A stretch of 49,536 bases of DNA from a virus (IMGVR_UViG_2534681701_000013:1-49536); one strand, 5' to 3'. Numbered from the stretch's first letter, positions 7,152 through 47,518 are shown. Notes: generated by a model from the sequence alone, not told the origin. Made by a program: numbers and translations.

Positions 7152-7697
7152 ATGACTATGCAACCACTTACATACCAACAGACTAGCGGATTTAGCCCGA
7201 CTGCGGTGATAAATCGTTCTCAAACAAAACAAGCTCCAGGCCACGAAAAAATCCGTGATGCCGTCCGCGCCTGGTCGGCTGCAGATAATCAGGATGTTGT
7301 TGCCGCACTCATTGTGAATGAGTATCGGGAGCAGGGCGGCGGCACCATCGATTTCCCTGATGATGTCAGCCGTGCACGCCAGAAGCTGTTCCGCTTCCTC
7401 GATAACAAATTCGATTCTGAAAAATACCGAAATAACGTGCGTGAACTGACCCCGGCAATTCTGGCGGTACTACCGCTGGAATATCGCGGTTACCTGGTTG
7501 AGCAGGATAGCTTTATGGCTAGGTTGGCTGAAATGGAAAAGGAACTCAGTGAGGCAAAACAGGCTGTCATTCTCAACGCACCACGCCACCAGAAACTGAA
7601 GGAGATGAGTGAAGGCATTGTGTCGATGTTTCGAGTGGACCCGGATCTGGCTGGTCCATTGATGGCGATGGTCACCACCATGCTGGGGGCAATATGA
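7152..7697 (+). CDS. Regulatory protein in the cII position (possibly YdaT/CII-like); function uncertain
   Basis: 181-aa ORF starting 24 bp after the cro-like gene; not lambda CII by sequence. Confidence 0.55.
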   Translation: MTMQPLTYQQTSGFSPTAVINRSQTKQAPGHEKIRDAVRAWSAADNQDVVAALIVNEYREQGGGTIDFPDDVSRARQKLFRFLDNKFDSEKYRNNVRELTPAILAVLPLEYRGYLVEQDSFMARLAEMEKELSEAKQAVILNAPRHQKLKEMSEGIVSMFRVDPDLAGPLMAMVTTMLGAI

Positions 7698-7702
7698 CAG
7701 GT

Positions 7703-7745
7703 TCAAAAATGGCGAAAGTCGGTCTGCGGGAACAGAACCGACTTT
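7703..7745 (-). terminator. Rho-independent terminator reading leftward (oop-like)
   Basis: 12-bp stem AAAGTCGGTCTG / CAGAACCGACTTT (one bulge), 6-nt loop, followed on the minus strand by CGCCATTTTTG. Confidence 0.55.
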
Positions 7746-7774
7746 CAGGTGCAAATCGTAACACACTCATTGCG
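7703..7774 (-). ncRNA. Candidate oop-like antisense RNA (about 70 nt)
   Basis: Minus-strand sigma70-like promoter at the start of O (-35 TTGAAT = plus 7804-7809, 17-nt spacer, -10 CATAAT = plus 7781-7786) facing the terminator above; same architecture as lambda pO/oop. Confidence 0.4.
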
Positions 7775-7783
7775 GGAGGAATT

Positions 7784-8713
7784 ATGGCAAACACTGCTAA
7801 GATATTCAATTTTCCAGTGCCGGATGCGGCACAAAAGGAGCCGCGTGTGGCAGATCTCGATGATGGTTATACGCGCATTGCAAATGAGTTGCTGGAAGCT
7901 GTGATGCTGGCCGGATTAACACAGCACCAGCTTCTGGTCTTCCTGGCTGTCATGCGCAAAACATATGGCTTTAATAAAAAACTGGATTGGGTGAGCAACG
8001 AGCAACTTTCCGAGTTGACCGGGATATTGCCGCACAAGTGTTCTGCTGCAAAAAGTGTTCTGGTAAAGCGTGGGATTTTTATTCAGAGCGGGCGGAATAC
8101 CGGCATTAATAATGTGGTCAGTGAATGGTCAACATTACCCGAATCAGGTAAGAAAAATAAAGTTTACCTGAAAGAGGTAAATTTACCTGAATCAGGTAAA
8201 AAAAGTTTACCCAAATCAGGTAAAGGCGTTTACCCGAATCAGGTAAACACAAAAGACAAACTAACAAAAGACAATATAAAACCTTTTTCGTCCGAGAATT
8301 CTGGCGAATCCTCTGACCAACCAGAAAACGATCTTCCTGTGGTGAAACCGGATGCTGCAATTCAGAGCGGCAGCAAGTGGGGGACAGCAGAAGACCTGAC
8401 CGCCGCAGAGTGGATGTTTGACATGGTGAAGACCATCGCGCCATCAGCCAGAAAACCGAATTTTGCAGGGTGGGCTAACGATATCCGCCTGATGCGTGAA
8501 CGTGACGGACGTAACCACCGCGACATGTGCGTGCTGTTCCGCTGGGCATGCCAGGACAACTTCTGGTCCGGTAACGTGCTAAGTCCGGCCAAACTCCGCG
8601 ACAAGTGGACCCAGCTCGAAATCAACCGAAACAAGCAACAGGCTGGCGTGACAGCCGGCAAACCAAAACTCGACCTGACGAACACTGACTGGATTTACGG
8701 GGTGGAGCTATGA
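7784..8713 (+). CDS. O: Replication initiator O
   Basis: N-terminus MANTAKIFNFPVP...ADLDDGY and C-terminus resemble lambda O; contains iterons; ATG at 7784 with GGGAGGA RBS (track ORF starts upstream at 7694). Confidence 0.9.
   Translation: MANTAKIFNFPVPDAAQKEPRVADLDDGYTRIANELLEAVMLAGLTQHQLLVFLAVMRKTYGFNKKLDWVSNEQLSELTGILPHKCSAAKSVLVKRGIFIQSGRNTGINNVVSEWSTLPESGKKNKVYLKEVNLPESGKKSLPKSGKGVYPNQVNTKDKLTKDNIKPFSSENSGESSDQPENDLPVVKPDAAIQSGSKWGTAEDLTAAEWMFDMVKTIAPSARKPNFAGWANDIRLMRERDGRNHRDMCVLFRWACQDNFWSGNVLSPAKLRDKWTQLEINRNKQQAGVTAGKPKLDLTNTDWIYGVEL
8135..8248. repeat. Replication origin iterons inside O (ori-lambda-like)
   Basis: Four to five direct copies of about 18 bp (TTACCCGAATCAGGTAA-like) followed by an AT-rich stretch at 8249-8285. 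Confidence 0.8.
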
Positions 8714-9411
8714 AAAACATCGCCGCACAGATGGTTAACTTTGACTGTGAGCAGATGCGCCGGATCGCCAACAACATGCCGGAACAGTACGACGAAAAGC
8801 CACAGGTACAGCAGGTAGCGCAGATCATCAACGGTGTGTTCAGCCAGTTACTGGCAACTTTCCCGGCGAGCCTGGCTAACCGTGACCAGAATGAACTGAA
8901 CGAAATCCGCCGCCAGTGGGTTCTGGCTTTCCGGGAAAACGGGATCACCACAATGGAACAGGTTAACGCTGGAATGCGCGTAGCCCGTCGGCAGAATCGA
9001 CCATTCCTGCCATCACCCGGGCAGTTTGTCGCCTGGTGCCGGGAAGAAGCATCTGTTAACGCCGGGCTGCCAAACGTCAGCGAGCTGGTTGATATGGTTT
9101 ACGAGTATTGCCGGAAGCGTGGCCTGTATCCGGATGCAGAGTCTTATCCGTGGAAATCGAACGCGCATTACTGGTTGGTTACCAACTTGTACCAGAACAT
9201 GCGGGCCAATGCGCTGACTGACGCGGAATTACGGCGCAAGGCTGCCGATGAACTGTCCTGTATGACCGCGCGAATTAACCGTGGTGAGGCGATACCTGAA
9301 CCAGTAAAACAACTTCCTGTCATGGGCGGTAGACCTCTAAATCGTGCACAGGCTCTGGCGAAGATCGCAGAAATCAAAGCTAAGTTCGGACTGAAAGGAT
9401 CAAGTGTATGA
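8710..9411 (+). CDS. P: Replication protein P (DnaB helicase loader)
   Basis: 233-aa translation matches lambda P almost throughout; ATGA overlap with the O stop. Confidence 0.95.
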   Translation: MKNIAAQMVNFDCEQMRRIANNMPEQYDEKPQVQQVAQIINGVFSQLLATFPASLANRDQNELNEIRRQWVLAFRENGITTMEQVNAGMRVARRQNRPFLPSPGQFVAWCREEASVNAGLPNVSELVDMVYEYCRKRGLYPDAESYPWKSNAHYWLVTNLYQNMRANALTDAELRRKAADELSCMTARINRGEAIPEPVKQLPVMGGRPLNRAQALAKIAEIKAKFGLKGSSV

Positions 9412-9710
9412 CGGGCAAAGAGGCAATTATTCATTACCTGGGGACGCATAAGAGCTTCTGTGCACAGGACGTTGCCGCGGTAACAGGTGCAACCGTAACC
9501 AGCATAAATCAGGCTGCGGCTAAAATGGCGCGGGCAGGAATCCTGGTCGTTGATGGTAAGGTCTGGCGAACGGTGTATTACCGGTTCGCTACCAGAGAAG
9601 AACGGGAAGGAAAGGTGAGCACGAATCTGATTTTTAAGGAGTGTCGCCAGAGTGCCGCGATGAAACGGGTACTGAGGGTATATAAAAGAACATCAATGGG
9701 AACACAATGA
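9408..9710 (+). CDS. ren: Ren (Rex exclusion relief protein)
   Basis: Translation MTGKEAIIHYLGTHKSFCAQDVAAVTGATVTSINQAAAKMARAG... matches lambda Ren. Confidence 0.9.
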   Translation: MTGKEAIIHYLGTHKSFCAQDVAAVTGATVTSINQAAAKMARAGILVVDGKVWRTVYYRFATREEREGKVSTNLIFKECRQSAAMKRVLRVYKRTSMGTQ

Positions 9711-9727
9711 TGAAACAGGTGAGTTGA

Positions 9728-9762
9728 GTTCAAACTGTAGTACAATTCTCTCCAGTTTGAAC
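9728..9762. other. Perfect 10-bp inverted repeat immediately upstream of the emrE RBS
   Basis: GTTCAAACTG (9728-9737), 15-nt loop, CAGTTTGAAC (9753-9762); no T-run follows. Confidence 0.5.
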
Positions 9763-9777
9763 AGGAAAGAATATGCT

Positions 9778-10110
9778 ATGAACCCTTATATTTATCTTGG
9801 TGGTGCAATACTTGCAGAGGTCATTGGTACAACCTTAATGAAGTTTTCAGAAGGTTTTACACGGTTATGGCCATCTGTTGGTACAATTATTTGTTATTGT
9901 GCATCATTCTGGTTATTAGCTCAGACGCTGGCTTATATTCCTACAGGGATTGCTTATGGTATCTGGTCAGGAGTCGGTATTGTCCTGATTAGCTTACTGT
10001 CATGGGGATTTTTCGGCCAACGGCTGGACCTGCCAGCCATTATAGGCATGATGTTGCTTTGTGCCGGTGTGTTGGTTATTAATTTATTGTCACGAAGCAC
10101 ACCACATTAA
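9778..10110 (+). CDS. emrE: SMR-family multidrug efflux transporter EmrE
   Basis: 110-aa translation MNPYIYLGGAILAEVIGTTLMKFSEGF... matches E. coli EmrE; ATG at 9778 with AGGA RBS (track ORF starts at 9724). Confidence 0.9.
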   Translation: MNPYIYLGGAILAEVIGTTLMKFSEGFTRLWPSVGTIICYCASFWLLAQTLAYIPTGIAYGIWSGVGIVLISLLSWGFFGQRLDLPAIIGMMLLCAGVLVINLLSRSTPH

Positions 10111-10364
10111 AATAATTTGTTTCTAAACGACTAAAATATGGAGGTTCTTATATTTATATGAGCCTCGTTTTATGCTTTTTGTTAATGTCTTTATTTTTTA
10201 TGTATTCTTTTGTACTTTCAAGATTATGGCGTAAGAAAATTGCAATACGATTATTGTTGTATATTCAAGATAATGTGACCTTAATTGTCTTTTTAAATAA
10301 AAATTAAACAAAAATTATATCCCACCACTAAGGTTTATAAAAGCATACGTTAGCAGGTGTCACC

Positions 10365-11891
10365 ATGAAAAAAGCCATAGCATATATGCGATTTTCATCA
10401 CCAGGTCAGATGTCTGGCGACTCATTAAACCGACAGAGAAGACTTATTGCTGAATGGTTAAAGGTAAATAGTGATTATTATCTTGATACCATAACATATG
10501 AAGATTTAGGATTAAGTGCATTCAAAGGAAAGCATGCACAATCAGGAGCTTTTTCGGAATTTTTAGATGCTATAGAGCATGGTTATATATTGCCAGGAAC
10601 TACATTGTTAGTTGAAAGTCTGGACAGACTTTCAAGAGAAAAAGTCGGTGAAGCGATTGAACGTCTGAAATTGATTTTGAATCACGGTATTGATGTTATA
10701 ACTCTTTGCGACAATACAGTCTATAATATTGACTCTTTGAATGAGCCATATTCATTAATAAAAGCCATACTTATAGCACAAAGGGCAAATGAAGAAAGCG
10801 AGATAAAGTCAAGTCGGGTTAAATTATCATGGAAGAAAAAACGGCAGGATGCACTGGAATCAGGTACGATTATGACGGCGTCTTGTCCGAGATGGCTCTC
10901 CTTAGATGACAAAAGAACGGCTTTTGTTCCAGACCCCGACAGGGTGAAAACTATTGAGCTAATTTTTAAACTCAGGATGGAAAGGCGCTCATTGAATGCA
11001 ATAGCCAAGTATTTAAATGATCATGCTGTAAAGAATTTCTCAGGAAAAGAAAGTGTATGGGGACCTTCTGTAATTGAAAAATTATTAGCGAATAAAGCTC
11101 TGATAGGTATATGCGTACCTTCATATCGTGCAAGAGGGAAAGGGATAAGTGAAATCGCTGGCTATTATCCCAGAGTCATATCAGATGATTTGTTTTACGC
11201 TGTACAGGAAATTCGGTTGGCACCTTTTGGTATTAGCAATAGTAGCAAGAATCCTATGCTAATAAATCTACTTCGAACAGTTATGAAGTGTGAGGCTTGT
11301 GGTAATACCATGATTGTTCATGCGGTATCTGGAAGTTTGCATGGCTATTATGTTTGTCCGATGAGAAGATTACATCGATGTGACAGGCCATCAATAAAAA
11401 GAGATTTGGTTGATTATAATATCATTAATGAATTGCTTTTTAATTGTAGCAAAATTCAACCAGTTGAAAACAAGAAAGATGCTAATGAAACTTTAGAGTT
11501 AAAAATTATTGAGCTTCAGATGAAAATTAATAATTTAATCGTTGCATTGTCTGTCGCGCCTGAAGTTACCGCTATAGCAGAGAAAATAAGACTATTAGAT
11601 AAGGAATTACGAAGGGCTTCGGTATCATTGAAAACTTTGAAGAGTAAAGGTGTAAATTCATTCAGTGATTTTTATGCTATTGACTTAACCAGTAAAAATG
11701 GACGAGAGTTATGCCGTACACTTGCCTATAAAACATTCGAAAAAATCATAATTAATACGGATAATAAAACCTGTGATATCTATTTTATGAATGGCATTGT
11801 TTTTAAACACTATCCTTTAATGAAAGTAATATCCGCCCAGCAGGCGATAAGTGCTCTCAAATATATGGTTGATGGTGAGATTTATTTCTAA
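10365..11891 (+). CDS. ybcK: Large serine recombinase (DLP12 YbcK-like)
   Basis: 508 aa; N-terminal resolvase-type motif AYMRFSSPGQ, central recombinase region, cysteine cluster CEACGNT...YYVCPMRRLHRCD (zinc ribbon); AT-rich. Confidence 0.9.
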   Translation: MKKAIAYMRFSSPGQMSGDSLNRQRRLIAEWLKVNSDYYLDTITYEDLGLSAFKGKHAQSGAFSEFLDAIEHGYILPGTTLLVESLDRLSREKVGEAIERLKLILNHGIDVITLCDNTVYNIDSLNEPYSLIKAILIAQRANEESEIKSSRVKLSWKKKRQDALESGTIMTASCPRWLSLDDKRTAFVPDPDRVKTIELIFKLRMERRSLNAIAKYLNDHAVKNFSGKESVWGPSVIEKLLANKALIGICVPSYRARGKGISEIAGYYPRVISDDLFYAVQEIRLAPFGISNSSKNPMLINLLRTVMKCEACGNTMIVHAVSGSLHGYYVCPMRRLHRCDRPSIKRDLVDYNIINELLFNCSKIQPVENKKDANETLELKIIELQMKINNLIVALSVAPEVTAIAEKIRLLDKELRRASVSLKTLKSKGVNSFSDFYAIDLTSKNGRELCRTLAYKTFEKIIINTDNKTCDIYFMNGIVFKHYPLMKVISAQQAISALKYMVDGEIYF

Positions 11892-12355
11892 ATAATGATC
11901 TCGGATTTTAAGTTATGCTATGGTGATAAAGTGCAAGACAGAATTAATTATCTTTGACGAAACTTAATGGGTAATTACTTTGTTTGCTCCCACAAGCGAG
12001 TTTTGTACGGCTGTATTGGGGTAGTAAATGAGCTATACAATCTTAATCATTTGTTAGGTGAGAACTCTTGGTCGCAGATTCAAATACTGAAAATACGTGA
12101 CAAATTATTATGAGCAAAATGGTGTATGTCACGTATTTTGAATGGTAGGTTAAAAAATAACACCGACTTTCGTAGGTATTACTAATAATAAAGCAGAGTT
12201 TTTAGATAGTATCAATGTGCTTTGTGTATATTGTGGCAAATAATTGGGTTGGGGGTACAATTGTGATTGCTTTTGCATGAACATTGCGCCTTTATGCATA
12301 ATGAGATAAAGGAATATCAAATAAAATAACGATAGGTCATAACAAAGAGGTTTTT

Positions 12356-12823
12356 ATGAAAACACTTATCGTTTCAACTGTATTGGCATTCATAACATTT
12401 TCTGCGCAGGCTGCAGCATTTCAGGTCACTAGTAATGAAATAAAAACAGGAGAGCAACTTACAACGTCTCATGTCTTTTCTGGATTTGGGTGTGAAGGTG
12501 GTAATACATCGCCCTCATTAACCTGGTCTGGTGTTCCTGAAGGTACCAAAAGCTTTGCCGTAACTGTATATGATCCAGATGCACCTACAGGCAGTGGTTG
12601 GTGGCATTGGACTGTTGTTAATATTCCAGCAACAGTAACATATTTGCCCGTTGATGCAGGGAGACGTGATGGAACAAAACTGCCGACTGGTGCTGTTCAA
12701 GGCCGAAATGATTTTGGCTATGCTGGGTTTGGTGGCGCATGTCCTCCTAAAGGAGATAAACCACATCATTACCAGTTTAAAGTATGGGCTCTAAAAACTG
12801 AAAAGATTCCTGTAGATTCTTAG
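12356..12823 (+). pseudogene. ybcL: ybcL (periplasmic PEBP/RKIP-family protein), 5' part, interrupted by IS2 after codon 155
   Basis: Signal peptide MKTLIVSTVLAFITFSAQA then PEBP-like sequence; reading frame runs into the IS2 end at 12821. Confidence 0.85.
12816..12820. repeat. IS2 target-site duplication, left copy (ATTCT)
   Basis: 5-bp ATTCT directly abutting the IS2 left end; identical copy at 14152-14156. Confidence 0.85.
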
Positions 12824-12911
12824 ACTGCCCCCCTGAATCTCCAGACAACCAGTATCACTTAAATAAGTGATAGTCTTAATACTAGTTTTTAGACTAGTCA
12901 TTGGAGAACAG

Positions 12912-13277
12912 ATGATTGATGTCTTAGGGCCGGAGAAACGCAGACGGCGTACCACACAGGAAAAGATCGCAATTGTTCAGCAGAGCTTTGAACCGGGGAT
13001 GACGGTCTCCCTCGTTGCCCGGCAACATGGTGTAGCAGCCAGCCAGTTATTTCTCTGGCGTAAGCAATACCAGGAAGGAAGTCTTACTGCTGTCGCCGCC
13101 GGAGAACAGGTTGTTCCTGCCTCTGAACTTGCTGCCGCCATGAAGCAGATTAAAGAACTCCAGCGCCTGCTCGGCAAGAAAACGATGGAAAATGAACTCC
13201 TCAAAGAAGCCGTTGAATATGGACGGGCAAAAAAGTGGATAGCGCACGCGCCCTTATTGCCCGGGGATGGGGAGTAA
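12912..13277 (+). CDS. insC: IS2 OrfA (InsC, HTH transposase subunit)
   Basis: [26 protein letters not shown]... matches IS2 InsC. Confidence 0.9.
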
Positions 13278-14140
13278 GCTTAGTCAGCCGTTGTCTCCGG
13301 GTGTCGCGTGCGCAGTTGCACGTCATTCTCAGACGAACCGATGACTGGATGGATGGCCGCCGCAGTCGTCACACTGATGATACGGATGTGCTTCTCCGTA
13401 TACACCATGTTATCGGAGAGCTGCCCACGTATGGTTATCGTCGGGTATGGGCGCTGCTTCGCAGACAGGCAGAACTTGATGGTATGCCTGCGATCAATGC
13501 CAAACGTGTTTACCGGATCATGCGCCAGAATGCGCTGTTGCTTGAGCGAAAACCTGCTGTACCGCCATCGAAACGGGCACATACAGGCAGAGTGGCCGTG
13601 AAAGAAAGCAATCAGCGATGGTGCTCTGACGGGTTCGAGTTCTGCTGTGATAACGGAGAGAGACTGCGTGTCACGTTCGCGCTGGACTGCTGTGATCGTG
13701 AGGCACTGCACTGGGCGGTCACTACCGGCGGCTTCAACAGTGAAACAGTACAGGACGTCATGCTGGGAGCGGTGGAACGCCGCTTCGGCAACGATCTTCC
13801 GTCGTCTCCAGTGGAGTGGCTGACGGATAATGGTTCATGCTACCGGGCTAATGAAACACGCCAGTTCGCCCGGATGTTGGGACTTGAACCGAAGAACACG
13901 GCGGTGCGGAGTCCGGAGAGTAACGGAATAGCAGAGAGCTTCGTGAAAACGATAAAGCGTGACTACATCAGTATCATGCCCAAACCAGACGGGTTAACGG
14001 CAGCAAAGAACCTTGCAGAGGCGTTCGAGCATTATAACGAATGGCATCCGCATAGTGCGCTGGGTTATCGCTCGCCACGGGAATATCTGCGGCAGCGGGC
14101 TTGTAATGGGTTAAGTGATAACAGATGTCTGGAAATATAG
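13235..14140 (+). CDS. insD: IS2 OrfB (InsD, DDE transposase; expressed as OrfAB by -1 frameshift)
   Basis: 301-aa ORF overlapping insC; translation matches IS2 InsD. Confidence 0.9.
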
Positions 14141-14151
14141 GGGGAAATCCA

Positions 14152-14156
14152 ATTCT
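14152..14156. repeat. IS2 target-site duplication, right copy (ATTCT)
   Basis: Identical to 12816-12820. Confidence 0.85.
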
Positions 14157-14243
14157 AACTCCAGCGGAGCGTTAGTTGGTTATATGCTTAATGCTAATAA
14201 AATCGCAACCGCTGAGATAACACCAGTTTATGAGATAAAGTAG
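14157..14243 (+). pseudogene. ybcL: ybcL 3' fragment displaced by IS2
   Basis: In frame with the 5' part once IS2 and one ATTCT copy are removed: NSSGALVGYMLNANKIATAEITPVYEIK then stop, giving a 183-aa product. Confidence 0.8.
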
Positions 14244-14252
14244 GGTGAGAGT

Positions 14253-15050
14253 ATGCTGGCAAGAGGTAAGACTAACTTAAAGATCGAAGAAATACGGATG
14301 CATAAACATCATGAGATTCATAGGGTTAAGCCTCTTATGCCAGCTTTGTGTCGTATCCGTCAGGGAAAGAAAGTTATCAATTGGGAGACGCATACTTTAA
14401 CTGTTGATAATAATCAAATAATATTATTTCCTTGTGGTTATGAATTTTATATTGAGAATTATCCTGAAGCAGGGCTTTATCTTGCAGAAATGCTTTACTT
14501 ACCCATTGATTTAATTGAGAGTTTCCAAAAACTTTATACGGTAACTGATCAAATACGTAACAAAACAAGTTTCTTTTTACCTCAGAATCCTGAGTTAATA
14601 TATTGTTGGGAGCAACTAAAAACATCTGTTTCCCGAGGCTTCTCAACTAAAATTCAGGAGCACTTAGCAATGGGCGTTCTACTTTCGTTAGGAGTGAATC
14701 ATGTTAATCATTTACTTTTATCATATAGTAAACAATCATTGATAAGTCGTTGTTATAACCTGCTGCTATCCGAACCCGGCACAAAATGGACAGCAAACAA
14801 GGTTGCTCGATATCTCTACATTTCTGTTTCTACATTACATCGCCGTCTAGCAAGCGAGGGGGTAAGTTTCCAAAGTATACTGGACGATGTGAGGTTAAAT
14901 AATGCGTTGTCTGCTATACAAACGACGGTAAAACCTATAAGCGAGATTGCCAGAGAAAATGGTTATAAGTGTCCTTCTCGTTTTACTGAAAGATTTCATA
15001 ATCGTTTTAATATAACACCAAGAGAGATAAGAAAAGCTTCCAGAGAGTAA
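14253..15050 (+). CDS. ybcM: AraC-family transcriptional regulator (DLP12 YbcM-like)
   Basis: 265 aa; C-terminal AraC-type HTH region ([21 protein letters not shown]...[20 protein letters not shown]); AT-rich. Confidence 0.85.
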
Positions 15051-15114
15051 AAGTGTTTTAAGAAGGAGCAATTCTATCGATTTTGATTTTGGGAAATCAA
15101 CACGGCATAATTAT

Positions 15115-15143
15115 GTCACCGGAGCCTGAACAACTCCGGTGAC
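15115..15143. other. Perfect 10-bp stem hairpin between ybcM and ybcN
   Basis: GTCACCGGAG, 9-nt loop, CTCCGGTGAC; no adjacent T-run. Confidence 0.5.
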
Positions 15144-15264
15144 TTCTGCGCTAAACGGGGACGTTTATGCGCACATACAATCCAAACTCTCTTCTCCCTT
15201 CACAGATGCAGAAATGCACCTGCAATTCTTTGCATCTAGCGTTTGACCTCTGCGGAGGTGAAGC

Positions 15265-15720
15265 GTGAACCTCTCACAAGACGGCATCAAATTACATCGC
15301 GGCAACTTCACCGCTATCGGTCGGCAGATCCAGCCTTATCTGGAGGAGGGCAAATGCTTTCGCATGGTGCTTAAACCGTGGCGTGAGAAACGCAGTCTTT
15401 CCCAGAATGCACTCAGCCACATGTGGTACAGCGAAATCAGTGAATACCTCATCAGCAGGGGTAAAACGTTCGCCACTCCAGCTTGGGTAAAAGATGCTCT
15501 CAAACACACATATCTCGGTTATGAAACCAAAGACCTGGTTGATGTCGTAACCGGTGATATCACCACTATCCAGTCGTTACGCCATACCTCCGACCTTGAT
15601 ACCGGAGAGATGTATGTCTTCCTGTGTAAGGTTGAAGCCTGGGCGATGAATATTGGCTGCCACCTGACTATTCCGCAGAGCTGCGAGTTCCAGCTGCTGC
15701 GTGATAAGCAGGAGGCGTAA
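15265..15720 (+). CDS. ybcN: NinB-like recombination protein (DLP12 YbcN)
   Basis: 151 aa, GTG start with GGAGGTG RBS; translation recognised as YbcN/NinB family. Confidence 0.85.
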
Positions 15721-17327: not shown

Positions 17328-18410
17328 TTAGAACTGATACACCAGACCTACAGCGACGATGTCGTCGGTATCAATACCAGCTGTTTTGGTAAACTTACTA
17401 TCGTCAATTAAGTTGATTTTGTAATCAACAAAAGTGGACATGTTTTTATTAAAGTAGTAAGTAGCACCGACATCGACATACTTGACTAAGTCTCGGTCAC
17501 CATGAACACCAAGGTCTTTACCTTTTGACTGAAGGTAAGCAACAGATGGTCGCAGACCGAAGTCAAACTGATATTGTGCTACTGCTTCAAAGTTTTGTGC
17601 TTTGTTTGCAATATGGTTATTACCAAAAACGGTCATATTCTGAGTTTCAGAATATGTGGTAGCCAGATAGATATTGTTCGCATCATATTTCAGGCCTGCA
17701 GCCCATACTTCCGCATTTTTGCCGGAGGCATTGAATTTGCTCTTACCATAGGCGACCTGACCGTCAGTGCGATCTGATTTAGCATAGGTTGCACCCACGC
17801 CGAATCCTTCATACTCATAAGTAGTGGAGAAACCGAAACCATCACCATTGGCTTCAGTTACGTCAGTGCGGTCATTTTTACCCTGATACTGAGCAGCAAA
17901 GTTCAGGCCATCGACCAGACCAAAGAAGTCGTTGTTACGATAGGTTGCAACACCAGTGGTGCGACCAGTCATGAACACATCTGTTTGGGTCCAGGTATCG
18001 CCACCGAATTCTGGCAGAACGTCAGTCCACGCACCGATGTCGTATGCTACACCGTAGTTACGGCCGTAATCGATTGAGCCGTAGTCACCGAATTTCAGGC
18101 CTGCAAATGCAAGACGGGTTTTGTCTTTGGAGGAACCTTGAGATTCAGCGCGGTTGCCTTTGAATTCATATTCCCACTGACCGAAACCAGTCAGTTGATC
18201 GTTGATTTGGGTTTCACCTTTGAAGCCAAGACGGGCATAAGTAGTATCACCATCATCTGCATCGTTAGAGGAAAAGTAGTGCTTGGCATTAACTTTCCCG
18301 TACAGATCCAGCTTGTTACTGTCTTTATTATAAATTTCAGCTGCCTGAGCAGACATCGCCATCAGTACTGATGCAGCTACAGCAGAAATTGCCACTGTTA
18401 ATTTTTTCAT
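17328..18410 (-). CDS. nmpC: Outer-membrane general porin (NmpC / Lc / OmpC-OmpF family), apparently intact
   Basis: 360 aa; signal peptide [23 protein letters not shown], porin-like beta-strand pattern, C-terminal ...VGLVYQF. Confidence 0.9.
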
Positions 18411-20541: not shown

Positions 20542-22113
20542 TTACTGAGAGCTCAGATCAACTTTCCAGGGCAACAGATCGCGTACCCGGTTTGCCGGCC
20601 AGTCCTGGATATGTTCAATGACGTAGCGCAGCCACTTTTCTGGCTCCACATTGTTCAGACGGCATGTGCCGATCAGCGAGTACAACACCGCCGCATGTTC
20701 ACCACCGCTGTCGGAACCCGCGAACATCCAGTTTTTCCGGCCTACGGCCACTCCCCGTAAGGCGTTCTCTGCGATGTTGTTGTCGATTTCCACCCAGCCA
20801 TTACTGCAGTACACGTTCAGTGCATCCCACTGTTTCAGCAGGTATGCGAACGCTTTTGCCGTATCTGAGTGACGCGACAGTGTTTTCATCTGTTGCTGTA
20901 TCCAGCCATACAGTGACTGCATCAGTGGCGCGGCTCTGATTTTTCTTGCCGCCAGACGCTGTTCTGCTGAACAGCCCCGGACCTCTGCCTCGATGGCATA
21001 CAGTTCACCGATACGCTGCAGGGCTTCCGTGGTGATGTCGGTGGGCGCTCTTGCATGCACATCGTGGATTTTTCTCCGGGCATGAGCCATACACGCGGCT
21101 TCCGTTATTCTGCCGGATTCGTATAACGCCCGGTAACCACCGTAAGCATCGGCCTGAAGCACACCGCTGTAACCGGCCAGGTGATTTTGTGGATGGATAC
21201 CTTTCCGGTCCGGACTGTACGCGAACCAGACCGCCGCAGGCATCTGTGAACCGGCGTTACGGTCATCACGGACGTAGACCCACAGCCGGGCTGTCCGGGT
21301 TTTACCGCTGCCCGGCTCCTGGACCGGGACGGGGATATCATCAGCATGGACTTTACCGGGCATCAGCACATACTGGCGCAGGACGTCATACAGCGGCTCC
21401 AGCAGTTCAGCAACAGCCCCTGTCCAGCGCCCCAGTGTGGCACGGCTCAGCTCCACTCCCTGACGACGGTATATTTCTGACTGGCGGTATAACGGCAGAT
21501 GGTCTGCATATTTCCCGGTGACAACATGGGCCAGAAGCCCCGCTCCGGCATAACTGCGTGCAATGGGTTTTGAAGGCACCGGTGCCTGCACGATATGGTC
21601 GCACCGGCAACAGGCCTGTTTCGGACGTTGTGTTTCGATAACCTTAAAGGCACTGCTGATAAGCTCCAGTTGCTCTGACACATCACATCCCAGTGGACTG
21701 AGTTCACCACCACAGGCCGGACAGCATTCCTCTTCCGGCCGGATGACCCGGGTTTCACGGGGAAGTGAAGCCGGTAACGGTTTACGGGCTGAAGACTGGC
21801 GCAGGGCGGATGGCAGTACCGGGTCATATTGCTCACCCAGCGTTTCTGCCATTTCTTCCTGAAGTGCGCTGATTCGCTCCTGTGCTTCCTGTATCTGCCG
21901 TTCGGTTTTTGCACGAAGTTTTTCTGAGCTTTTACCGAACTGCATACGTTGCAGTTTCGCAACCAGCGCCTTCAGCCGGTTGATTTCGGAAGCATAAGCC
22001 GCCACCCGCTGTGAGAGCAGGCGGTTGTATTCAGCCATCTGGCGGATGGTGTCCTGTTGCGTCTGCAACAGTGCCCGCAGGCGGGCGTTCTCATGAGCAA
22101 GTGAGGTGTCCAT
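20542..22113 (-). CDS. tnpC: IS66-family transposase TnpC (orf3)
   Basis: 523 aa with N-terminal leucine zipper-like region, CPACGGEL zinc motif and central DDE-like region. Confidence 0.9.
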
Positions 22114-22132
22114 ATCCTCACTTTACAACGGG

Positions 22133-22480
22133 TTATATACGGATGCCAGTGCGTTCCGTTCGTTTCGGGTGCTTCCAGTTGATACCTTCAAGAAGCATGG
22201 ATAACTGAGCCGGAGTAAGGTGAACCTTTCCATCGCGGGTGACCGGCCAGACGAAGCGGCCCCGCTCCAGGCGTTTGGTGAAGAGGCACAGTCCGTCACT
22301 GTCAGCCCACAGCACTTTTATCTGGTCACCCCGGCGTCCGCGGAAGATGAACAGATGCCCGGAGAACGGGTCATCCTTCAGGACGTTCTGAACTTTTGAT
22401 GCCAGGCCGTTAAAACCATTTCGCATGTCGGTGATACCGGCAACCAGCCAGATACGCGAACCGGCAGGGAGAGATATCAT
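22133..22480 (-). CDS. tnpB: IS66-family TnpB (orf2)
   Basis: 115-aa ORF MISLPAGSRIWLVAGITDMRNGFNGL... typical of IS66 orf2. Confidence 0.85.
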   Translation of the reverse strand: MISLPAGSRIWLVAGITDMRNGFNGLASKVQNVLKDDPFSGHLFIFRGRRGDQIKVLWADSDGLCLFTKRLERGRFVWPVTRDGKVHLTPAQLSMLLEGINWKHPKRTERTGIRI

Positions 22481-23127
22481 CAGTGGCTGCTCCCTTTCAT
22501 TTCGCGGATAAGTGACTGTAATAACGCCGGTGTCAGTTCACCTTTCAGCCTGAGAGTTCCGGCCGGCAGAACCAGCTCGCAGCACAGACTGTCGGTCGGT
22601 GTATTTATCTGCTCAACCTGCACGGGGTCCGGGATTTTATTATTCGGCTCCGGCGTTAACGTCACGGGAAGTAGCGATGTTTCATGTTCGCCGGGCGGCT
22701 GCAGGCCGCCGTTACGCCAGAGATGCCGCCAGTTAAAGAGCAGGTTATCGTTGATTCCATTCTCACGAGCTATTTGTGCGACACAGGCACCGGGTAAAAG
22801 AGTTTGCTGAACAAGTCTCCATTTAAACTCCGGTGAAAATCGGTTCCGACGGGGTTTCTCTGCTTTCACAGGCTGAGTCACGGTCGGGGCTGAAGGGTAT
22901 CGCCCCGGGAAAAGAGCCCGGGCCAGTTGCCCGCAGGAATATTTACCGGAAAGAGGCCAGTCAGTGAATACCTGGTGAAATCGCCTCACCAGAGAAAAAA
23001 TGGCGGTTTTGCTGACACCAGTCTGCGCAGAAATGCGCGGGTACGACAGTGACTCGTCAAATCTCAGCTGTAGCACACGCAGGATCAATTCCGGATTATC
23101 TGCCAGTACCGCCTTTCGTGCATTCAT
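22480..23127 (-). CDS. tnpA: IS66-family TnpA (orf1)
   Basis: 215-aa ORF whose stop overlaps the tnpB start; position and size as IS66 orf1. Confidence 0.8.
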   Translation of the reverse strand: MNARKAVLADNPELILRVLQLRFDESLSYPRISAQTGVSKTAIFSLVRRFHQVFTDWPLSGKYSCGQLARALFPGRYPSAPTVTQPVKAEKPRRNRFSPEFKWRLVQQTLLPGACVAQIARENGINDNLLFNWRHLWRNGGLQPPGEHETSLLPVTLTPEPNNKIPDPVQVEQINTPTDSLCCELVLPAGTLRLKGELTPALLQSLIREMKGSSH

Positions 23128-23929: not shown

Positions 23930-24120
23930 GTCCTTTCCGGCGATCCGACAGGTTACGGGGCGGCGACCTCGCGGGTTTTCGCTATTTATGAAAATTTTCC
24001 GGTTTAAGGCATTTCCGTTCTTCTTCGTCGTAACTTAATGTTTTTATTTAAAATACCCCCTGAAAAGAAAGGAAACGACAGGTGCTGAAAACGAGCTTTT
24101 GGGCCTCTGTCGTTTCCTTT
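23930..24120 (+). other. cos site (cosQ-cosN-cosB); cosN 12-nt cohesive end GGGCGGCGACCT at 23958-23969
   Basis: ...TCCGACAGGTTACG/GGGCGGCGACCTCGCGGGTTTTCGCTATTTATGAAAATTTTCCGGTTTAAGG matches the junction of lambda right and left ends as I recall it. Confidence 0.9.
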
Positions 24121-24146
24121 CTCTGTTTTTGGCCGTGGAATGAACA

Positions 24147-46934: not shown

Positions 46935-47518
46935 TGGCATTCAGAATGAGTGAACAACCACGGGCCATAAAAATTTATAATCTGCTGGCCGGAACTAATG
47001 AATTTATTGGTGAAGGTGATGCATATATTCCGCCTCATACAGGTCTGCCAGCAAACAGTACCGATATTGCACCGCCAGATATTCCGGCTGGCTTCGTGGC
47101 TGTTTTCAACAGTGATGAGTCATCGTGGCATCTCGTTGAAGATCATCGGGGTAAAACGGTTTATGACGTGGCTTCCGGCGACGCGTTATTTATTTCTGAA
47201 CTCGGTCCGTTACCGGAAAATGTTACCTGGTTATCGCCGGAAGGGGAGTTTCAGAAGTGGAACGGCACAGCCTGGGTGAAGGATACGGAAGCAGAAAAAC
47301 TGTTCCGGATCCGGGAGGCGGAAGAAACAAAAAACAACCTGATGCAGGTAGCCAGTGAGCATATTGCGCCGCTTCAGGATGCTGCAGATCTGGAAATTGC
47401 AACGGAGGAAGAAATCTCGTTGCTGGAAGCATGGAAAAAGTATCGGGTATTGCTGAACCGTGTTGATACATCAACTGCACCTGATATTGAGTGGCCTACG
47501 AACCCTGTCAGGGAGTAA
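46934..47518 (+). CDS. tfa: Tail fibre assembly chaperone Tfa
   Basis: 194-aa translation [24 protein letters not shown]... matches lambda Tfa. Confidence 0.95.

Follow-up and report, generated by a model that had tools for sequence, protein, structure and literature searches.

The closest described counterpart of the locus considered here is found in DLP12, the lambdoid prophage of Escherichia coli K-12 (b0543-b0546 region), for which argU serves as the integration site through DLP12's own integrase (PMC6379469). The DNA analyzed in this study, a viral sequence of 49,536 nucleotides (nt) (IMGVR_UViG_2534681701_000013:1-49536, referred to below in its full length as the window), represents an almost complete E. 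coli lambdoid prophage of DLP12 type, and between its ren gene and the NinB-like gene ybcN it carries an AT-rich block containing emrE, ylcJ, ybcK, ybcL and ybcM, the same genes in the same order and at the same position as in K-12. This block is the already known accessory ("moron") cluster of DLP12-type lambdoid prophages that is annotated in K-12. Over the ybcK segment the identity is at least 99.7% (99.7-99.9% with respect to the DLP12 regions of K-12, BL21 and further E. coli in which all five genes are annotated; in strains derived from K-12 it is 99.7% across 2,078 bp, and gene annotation and synteny agree). The window and the K-12 prophage differ in what has remained whole: here O, P, ren and nmpC are intact, the structural genes are present and ybcL is split by the insertion sequence IS2, whereas in K-12 it is ren that is disrupted.

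The block resembles the morons and nin-region hot spots of lambdoid phages in its deviant base composition, its presence or absence between collinear phages, its fixed map position, its junctions at gene boundaries, possibly promoters or terminators of its own, and a cargo of efflux, regulatory and defence (BstA) genes. What sets it apart is ybcK, which encodes a full-length large serine recombinase, an atypical product for a moron. YbcK shares with the large serine integrases of phages (phiC31, Bxb1, A118/LI, SPbeta SprA) the order of N-terminal domain, helix alphaE, recombinase domain (RD) and zinc-ribbon domain (ZD), the coiled coil, the catalytic serine and arginine set and full-length structural matches; it differs from them in being ~15-18% identical, in lying away from the prophage attachment (att) site, in not being the integrase of its phage, and in that neither attP and attB nor a recombination directionality factor (RDF) was found for it. 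Large serine recombinases situated within another mobile element, beside resistance or accessory cargo, are known from Tn4451 (TnpX), Tn5397 (TndX) and SCCmec (Ccr), a likeness of description only; unlike these, the ybcK block shows no terminal repeats, no evidence of a circular form and no multiple insertion sites in E. coli. The invertible segments of cryptic prophages (Pin, Gin, Hin) likewise have a serine recombinase inside a prophage, but YbcK is a large and not a small enzyme, and neither flanking inverted crossover sites nor inverted alleles were detected among the 88 loci compared.

We consider it fairly probable that the block is a moron cluster of the DLP12-type ren-ninB interval, built of exchangeable modules and not moved by YbcK. 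Viewed as part of a genome it is unremarkable, an accessory region of the kind familiar from textbook prophages; YbcK itself merits attention as a conserved, selected and complete serine integrase lacking a known substrate in the best-studied bacterium.

Modules and junctions of the ren-ninB interval

The comparison set for the window comprised 5,426 genomes of E. coli together with 88 related loci, and the cargo downstream of ybcK was surveyed in 84 loci. The original prediction, made from the sequence of the window, had proposed an AT-rich accessory island, and the comparison with phages lacking the block bears this out for a horizontally exchanged insert with definable junctions at ~9684-9702 and ~15081. 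The left junction falls at the 3' end of ren, in its final ~27 nt: homology to phages that have no emrE is lost at 9670-9683, and a chromosomal islet with emrE (between fliE and yedK, discussed below) matches from 9702 onwards. At the right junction (15081-15084) every class of cargo meets the phage backbone, and all compared phages resume homology. Calculated without IS2, the G+C content of the block is 36.3%, versus 51% in O-P-ren on the left and 48% in the backbone on the right.

All five genes are on the plus strand. The first, emrE (9778-10110), encodes a small multidrug resistance (SMR) efflux transporter (PF00893, E 2.6e-34; RefSeq matches annotated emrE), and is followed by ylcJ (10158-10307), annotated under that name and encoding a hydrophobic small protein of 49 amino acids (aa) (PF23688 YlcJ, E 2.4e-35), and by ybcK (10365-11891, 508 aa). 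The ybcL gene, encoding a PEBP/RKIP-like periplasmic protein (PF01161), spans 12356-14243 and is divided into 12356-12820 and 14157-14243 by a plus-strand IS2 (12821-14151) with terminal inverted repeats and a 5-bp target duplication, ATTCT; removal of IS2 and its duplication restores a YbcL frame of 183 aa. The last gene, ybcM (14253-15050), encodes an AraC-family regulator (PF12833 and PF00165), and in K-12 ybcLM is autoregulated by YbcM, which binds upstream of ybcLM according to chromatin immunoprecipitation with exonuclease digestion (ChIP-exo; PMC8464067). While the AT-rich block with emrE, ybcK, the IS2-split ybcL and ybcM had been correctly placed by the prediction, its gene list was incomplete in that ylcJ was overlooked.

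Two parts of the block behave differently across the comparison set. emrE and ylcJ always occur together (1,401 genomes), and ybcK, found in 1,427 of the 5,426 genomes at a median of one copy and a maximum of two, has a constant context in the E. coli genomes. Its 3' end is followed by a conserved tail of 65 nt (11892-11956, plus strand) ending in ...TTAAYTATC, which alignment of the A, B and E type loci together with the cargo survey identifies as the common left junction of all cargo classes. The slot beyond this tail (equivalent to 11957-15080) holds at least eight classes of cargo. The ybcLM cargo seen in the window was present in 31 of the 84 loci, a protein of 118 aa in 13, an alpha/beta hydrolase on the opposite strand in 12, an HNH-like protein of 260 aa in eight, a near-empty arrangement of 341 nt in another eight, a protein of 169 aa in five, and a homologue of the abortive-infection protein BstA (phrog_6287, E 2e-136) in three; the remaining loci contain further classes, including several proteins without assigned function. 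Segment X (11957-12195), which holds a 13-bp perfect inverted repeat, is restricted to cargo of the ybcLM type, and in most of the other types an open reading frame (ORF) of 107 aa with similarity to P22_AR_C (anti-repressor C-terminal) lies directly 3' of ybcK. All cargo classes rejoin the backbone at the same promoter-like site, and phages with the same O-P-ren and ybcN flanks that have neither emrE nor ybcK contain other small genes in the interval.

Judged from these alignments, the block consists of at least three independently assorting modules, forming a composite within a hypervariable ren-ninB interval and not one unit. Behavior as a single unit fails in that ybcLM is swapped for at least seven other cargos beside the same ybcK, and in that emrE and ybcLM are found together without ybcK in 2,628 genomes. 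The ren-ninB interval of DLP12-type phages can be described as a cargo slot with fast turnover, and the BstA homologue makes it useful for the mining of defence systems; YbcK, YbcL, YbcM and EmrE themselves had no match among the PADLOC defence models. Promoter-like matches numbered 17, hardly different from the 15.8 in shuffled sequence; for K-12, a Rho terminator ahead of ybcK and a ybcLM promoter under YbcM control have been reported.

YbcK and the search for its recombination sites

The domain composition, conservation and predicted structure of YbcK indicate a complete large serine recombinase, encoded by what appears to be a working gene under strong purifying selection. The protein contains the catalytic Resolvase domain (PF00239, E 5.6e-19), the Recombinase domain (PF07508) and the zinc ribbon Zn_ribbon_recom (PF13408), and these, together with a coiled coil that is present by prediction, are the features by which the large serine recombinase family is recognized. 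Across 18 homologues (42-61% identity) the residues R9, S11, D87, R88 and R91 are invariant, as are the cysteines C309, C312, C331 and C339 and the motifs Y7-x-R9-x-S11...Q15 and D87-R88-L-S-R91. In the AlphaFold (AF2) model (pLDDT 79.6), helix alphaE corresponds to residues 128-166, the RD to 191-282, the ZD to 307-364 and the predicted coiled coil to 373-427, the latter composed of two helices (373-397 and 402-427). Foldseek aligned the model over its full length to serine integrase structures, including PhiC31 and Bxb1 complexes (E 4e-18 to 3e-14), while a sequence search of the PDB gave no match reaching E 0.001. Intact reading frames were found for 87 of 88 ybcK copies, with a median ratio of nonsynonymous to synonymous substitution rates (dN/dS) of 0.077 among the E. 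coli phages. A 24-bp perfect palindrome within the gene (10612-10635) was considered as a site and rejected as a codon by-product of the catalytic ESLDRLS sequence, being invariant in the E. coli copies and lost in homologues.

The locus is carried by viable sequenced phages (PhiR34_1, 4A7, 3W and others). That this second recombinase is unrelated to the phage's integrase, as had been predicted, is confirmed: the window encodes a tyrosine integrase at 1-1164, distinct from YbcK, and phage 4A7 has a lambda-type Int and Xis alongside YbcK. In K-12, a Rho/NusG-dependent terminator upstream of ybcK holds down its transcription (PMC4150792), and ylcJ is located in the stretch that has been reported to form this Rho-dependent leader. 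The literature we found on ybcK is confined to annotation, expression and tolerance screens, with no recombination study or assay among it.

To search for traces of site-specific recombination, five junction regions (ren/emrE, emrE/ylcJ, ybcK tail/cargo, X/ybcL and cargo/backbone) were compared by local alignment in both orientations against shuffled sequences. None of the 20 junction-pair comparisons gave direct or inverted similarity above the shuffled controls (minimum p ~0.06), and the left and right cargo junctions were unrelated in either orientation (p 0.36 and 0.51). A repeat search around the block returned chance-level pairs only. No cognate dyad of the attP/attB type was found at the five junctions, and the strong dyad nearby (12090-12139) is missing from most ybcK loci. 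A synthetic empty junction, with the ybcK tail joined directly to the backbone, occurred in 0 of the 5,426 genomes; nor did any of these contain a phage-type emrE without ylcJ-ybcK, the single match with ylcJ only being due to an IS1 deletion. There were no minus-strand matches of the island segment or cargo in 84 cargos and 88 loci, and no prophage map was permuted or broken at ybcK in the 88 loci.

These results leave little of the more dynamic roles that had been proposed. The expected direct repeats or attL/attR-like sequences at the boundaries did not materialize, and a nested integrative element finds no support in view of the presence of at least three modules, the lack of att-like repeats, the missing empty site and the occurrence of ybcK as a single copy in one context. 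An invertible element is likewise not borne out, with no inverted variant and no significant inverted repeats at the junctions, and for a recombinase-controlled cargo module nothing in the sequence evidence was found to point that way. We infer that YbcK is an orphan recombinase, the DNA target of which would lie outside the borders of the block.

An arrangement without ybcK does exist on the E. coli chromosome, where emrE, ybcL and ybcM, lacking ylcJ-ybcK, lie between fliE and yedK in 2,628 of the 5,426 genomes with ~90% identity to the phage copy (for example at 8001-10153 of our locus L001, at 4001-6667 of L095, and in L096). Relative to the phage, a 2.08-kb ybcK segment (10118-12195) is missing and is flanked by AATAAT(T/A). 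The islet then runs on into the start of ylcH/ybcN, and from there its sequence passes abruptly to Q (3' end) and nmpC (5' region), a pattern that identifies it as a prophage fossil of DLP12 type, multiply deleted and fixed in the chromosome. We therefore rejected the islet as evidence of an empty site for ybcK, since in such a heavily deleted fossil the missing ybcK may be simply another deletion.

Relatives of YbcK are found in Atlantibacter, Yersinia, Ewingella, Citrobacter, Pantoea, Erwinia, Lonsdalea and other genera, in diverse surroundings: in the nin region of lambdoid prophages (L011, L017, L032), after tail-fibre genes at the prophage end and next to a transfer-messenger RNA (tmRNA) gene or tRNA fragment (L007, L009, L020, L021, L026), on plasmids (L025, L027), and adjoining a tyrosine integrase (L028). 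In Atlantibacter, no further gene separates the homologue from an intact tmRNA gene that follows it. No partner gene, be it an RDF or another system component, is common to these loci. In many of them the gene exceeds its flanks in A+T content, and three related pairs located in different contexts have nothing in common beyond the gene and short flanks, from -222 to +56 (94% identity), -126 to +4 (83%) and -67 to 0 (76%), such that between-context homology stops at most ~56 nt past the stop codon and, on the other side, 67-222 nt ahead of the start. While such gene-sized exchange could hint at self-mobility, we read it, on the basis of these alignments, as probable ordinary mosaic exchange of a selected gene, because hardly any space is left for terminal att sites where homology ends at or near the stop codon (within a few nt in two pairs), and because the inside ends show no inverted-repeat relation to one another.

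Two observations on neighboring genes may be added. Genes similar to umuD/umuC (ImpB/MucB family) or encoding SRAP (YedK-like) proteins, representing SOS or damage-tolerance cargo, adjoin YbcK homologues in five loci (L007, 9337-9684; L018, 8992-13291; L019, 9107-9745; L020 and L021, 8148-9865), not generally. A more distant large serine recombinase (32% identity; L078, 9310-11632) directly follows a truncated ComM/ChlI-like gene and, unlike the YbcK contexts, looks like a genuine recombinase-mediated insertion into comM.

Formation of the block and possible roles of YbcK

The reading of the block as a moron cluster of exchangeable modules draws on what the comparisons show: how the block divides into modules, where these join, that att-like repeats are lacking, and that YbcK is intact and under selection. 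The first module is the fixed unit emrE-ylcJ-ybcK (about 9684-11956), and the second the cargo slot (11957-15080), occupied in the window by ybcL-ybcM, which IS2 entered later. Modules would be swapped between co-infecting or resident lambdoid phages through homologous recombination in the conserved flanks, these being O-P-ren on the left and the promoter, hairpin, ylcH and ybcN on the right, with further swaps arising by illegitimate recombination and being selected at gene boundaries. In the lysogen, YbcK would be silenced by the Rho-dependent terminator in its leader; after induction it would presumably be made through N-antiterminated early-right readthrough, given that ybcK sits in the early-right operon, and would then act in trans on a site away from the block borders. 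Identification of such a target would add a native serine-integrase system to E. coli, and might explain the second recombinase of these lambdoid phages.

Several considerations weigh against this scenario, of which the exchange mechanism, the timing of expression and the location of the YbcK target elsewhere are its conjectural parts. The exchange mechanism has been deduced from patterns of sequence similarity rather than observed. Purely passive cargo does not explain an intact and strongly selected recombinase without an assigned substrate, and all classes have their cargo starting at one and the same nucleotide behind ybcK, a constancy that a recombination site at this position would fit too. 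The att sites of large serine recombinases have no more in common than a core of 2 bp and a weak dyad symmetry, which limits the power of the repeat tests. Finally, the sole arrangement without ybcK, the fliE islet, is ~9% diverged and heavily deleted and cannot distinguish insertion of ybcK from its loss.

Could the ybcK unit, alone or with emrE-ylcJ, be a small self-mobile integrative cassette, excised as a circle and inserted into phage or plasmid DNA, in effect a scaled-down version of the nested element? The intact gene and its purifying selection would suit such a cassette, as would the unrelated places in which homologues occur (nin region, tail-fibre/tmRNA end, plasmids, beside a tyrosine integrase), the three pairs of homologues that at 76-94% identity share gene and short flanks in different contexts, the AATAAT(T/A) flanking the ybcK indel relative to the fliE islet, and the AT-richness of the gene in many loci. 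Yet the 1,401-1,427 E. coli genomes concerned have ybcK as a single copy in a constant context, none of the genomes offers an empty site, and the only islet without the gene is a deletion-ridden fossil; no inverted repeat relates the inside ends, and in the two pairs in which homology ends within a few nt of the stop codon there is no room for the att half-site of a right end. We regard this cassette as unlikely.

A related and broader proposal, to which we would likewise give only a small chance, is that the YbcK-type recombinases of the Enterobacterales (40-60% identical) form a distinct class of solitary, gene-sized modules, which temperate phages and plasmids would retain for some task that is not the integration of their carrier, either as a minimal self-mobile cassette or as a recombinase of lytic growth that acts on a site in host or competitor DNA. 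If true, this would mean that an uncharacterized site-specific recombination system is present in a quarter of E. coli genomes, including K-12 and BL21.

It seems quite improbable that YbcK serves as a second integrase for the whole phage, or as a resolvase of phage or plasmid multimers, with an attP- or res-like site near the gene. The full integrase architecture of the protein, the plasmid-borne homologues and the Atlantibacter homologue preceding an intact tmRNA gene speak for such a role, and as a candidate site there is a dyad of 50 bp (12090-12139), formed by a strong inverted repeat of 13 bp that lies 200 bp downstream of ybcK, where attP often sits. However, this repeat occurs in ybcLM-type loci only while ybcK is kept in all types, no prophage map among the 88 loci is permuted at ybcK, and a tyrosine Int is present in all examined phages.

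The observation that at least eight cargo classes share both their start after ybcK and their end position on the backbone, and that they include defence and moron genes, which turn over quickly, would also be expected if YbcK were a recombinase for the capture or exchange of cargo, taking circular cargo at a site at the end of the 65-nt tail in a loosely integron-like manner. Such a function is hard to reconcile with cargos that have no common terminal motif and whose left and right junctions are unrelated, with the variation of most non-ybcLM types only after the 107-aa ORF and at several points (coordinates 417-486), and with an interval that is equally variable in phages lacking ybcK, and we consider it highly improbable. 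A decaying, functionless remnant of a former integrative element, as the want of partner genes or identifiable sites and the Rho-silencing in K-12 might suggest, is barely credible for a gene of viable phages with 87 of 88 copies intact, a dN/dS that contradicts decay, and catalytic and zinc-binding residues invariant across genera.

Hairpins, flanking genes and other features of the window

The two hairpins that had been predicted at the block boundaries do have perfect 10-bp stems and, as was also foreseen, are not classical terminators, there being no T-run after either. They do not mark the junctions: by the comparative junctions the left hairpin is inside the block and the right one 34 nt outside it, and the 12090-12139 repeat had not been listed. 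Perfect hairpins with stems of at least 10 bp number 10 in the window, four of them in the block, versus ~1.5 in simulated sequence. The left hairpin (9728-9762, plus strand; 15-nt loop, -11.9 kcal/mol, z -5.2) lies in the 5' leader of emrE, 16 nt upstream of its ATG, and accompanies emrE in the phage as well as in the chromosomal fliE-islet context. It is nearly invariant, with single disruptive changes only and no covariation for or against a structure, and is best regarded as part of the emrE leader.

The right hairpin (15115-15143, plus strand; 9-nt loop, -17.1 kcal/mol, z -5.8) belongs to a plus-strand backbone unit (15083-15143) in which it follows a sigma-70-like TTGATT-17-CATAAT sequence, with ylcH-ybcN downstream. 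This unit of promoter-like sequence and hairpin was found in ~2,959 of the 5,426 genomes, including phages without the block, and beside every cargo class. Natural variants of the hairpin are C-to-T changes in the 5' arm only, and because these stay compatible with G.U pairing in the plus-strand RNA they suggest a conserved RNA-level element of the phage backbone; the unit is possibly a promoter with a 5' stabilizing or regulatory stem-loop. The two hairpins have no sequence in common, and neither matched an Rfam family. Hairpins as the ends of an element were rejected, as the sequences are unrelated, belong to different modules and, on the right, occur in phages without the block.

The perfect inverted repeat of the ybcLM-type loci (12090-12139) has 13-bp arms, a 24-nt spacer and a predicted RNA structure of -18.9 kcal/mol (z -4.0). 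It was considered as an attP and rejected, being restricted to these loci, and its additional copies in the window, with two mismatches, were at chance level. We interpret it as a likely terminator (perhaps bidirectional) or operator between ybcK and ybcLM, given its form of A-tract, stem and T-tract and the reported binding of YbcM upstream of ybcLM (PMC8464067). The strongest hairpin in the window is a separate one, at 24066-24122, with a 25-nt loop on a perfect stem of 16 bp; it closely precedes the small terminase gene and is possibly a terminator or tied to cos or to terminase expression.

To the left of the block lie O (7694-8713), P (8710-9411) and ren (9408-9710), the last being its left flank gene; to the right, the backbone resumes with ylcH (15167-15268, plus strand, 33 aa) and the NinB/Orf-like ybcN (15265-15720, plus strand), the right flank gene. 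Elsewhere in the window are exo/bet, cI/cro, ybcN/ninE/ybcO/rusA/Q, an nmpC-type porin gene, lysis genes and a full structural module. The porin gene is intact (17328-18410, 360 aa), whereas IS5 disrupts its counterpart in K-12, as fits a prophage that has undergone far less decay in the window than DLP12 has in K-12. At 20542-23127, in the interval from bor to the terminase genes, there are three ORFs of 215, 115 and 523 aa, co-oriented on the minus strand, that are presumably of the IS66 family, judging by the TnpB-like look of the 115-aa sequence. Within the tail-fibre assembly gene region, 47277-47475 is a full-length match to Rfam IS009, with a score of 223.6 bits (gathering score 117).

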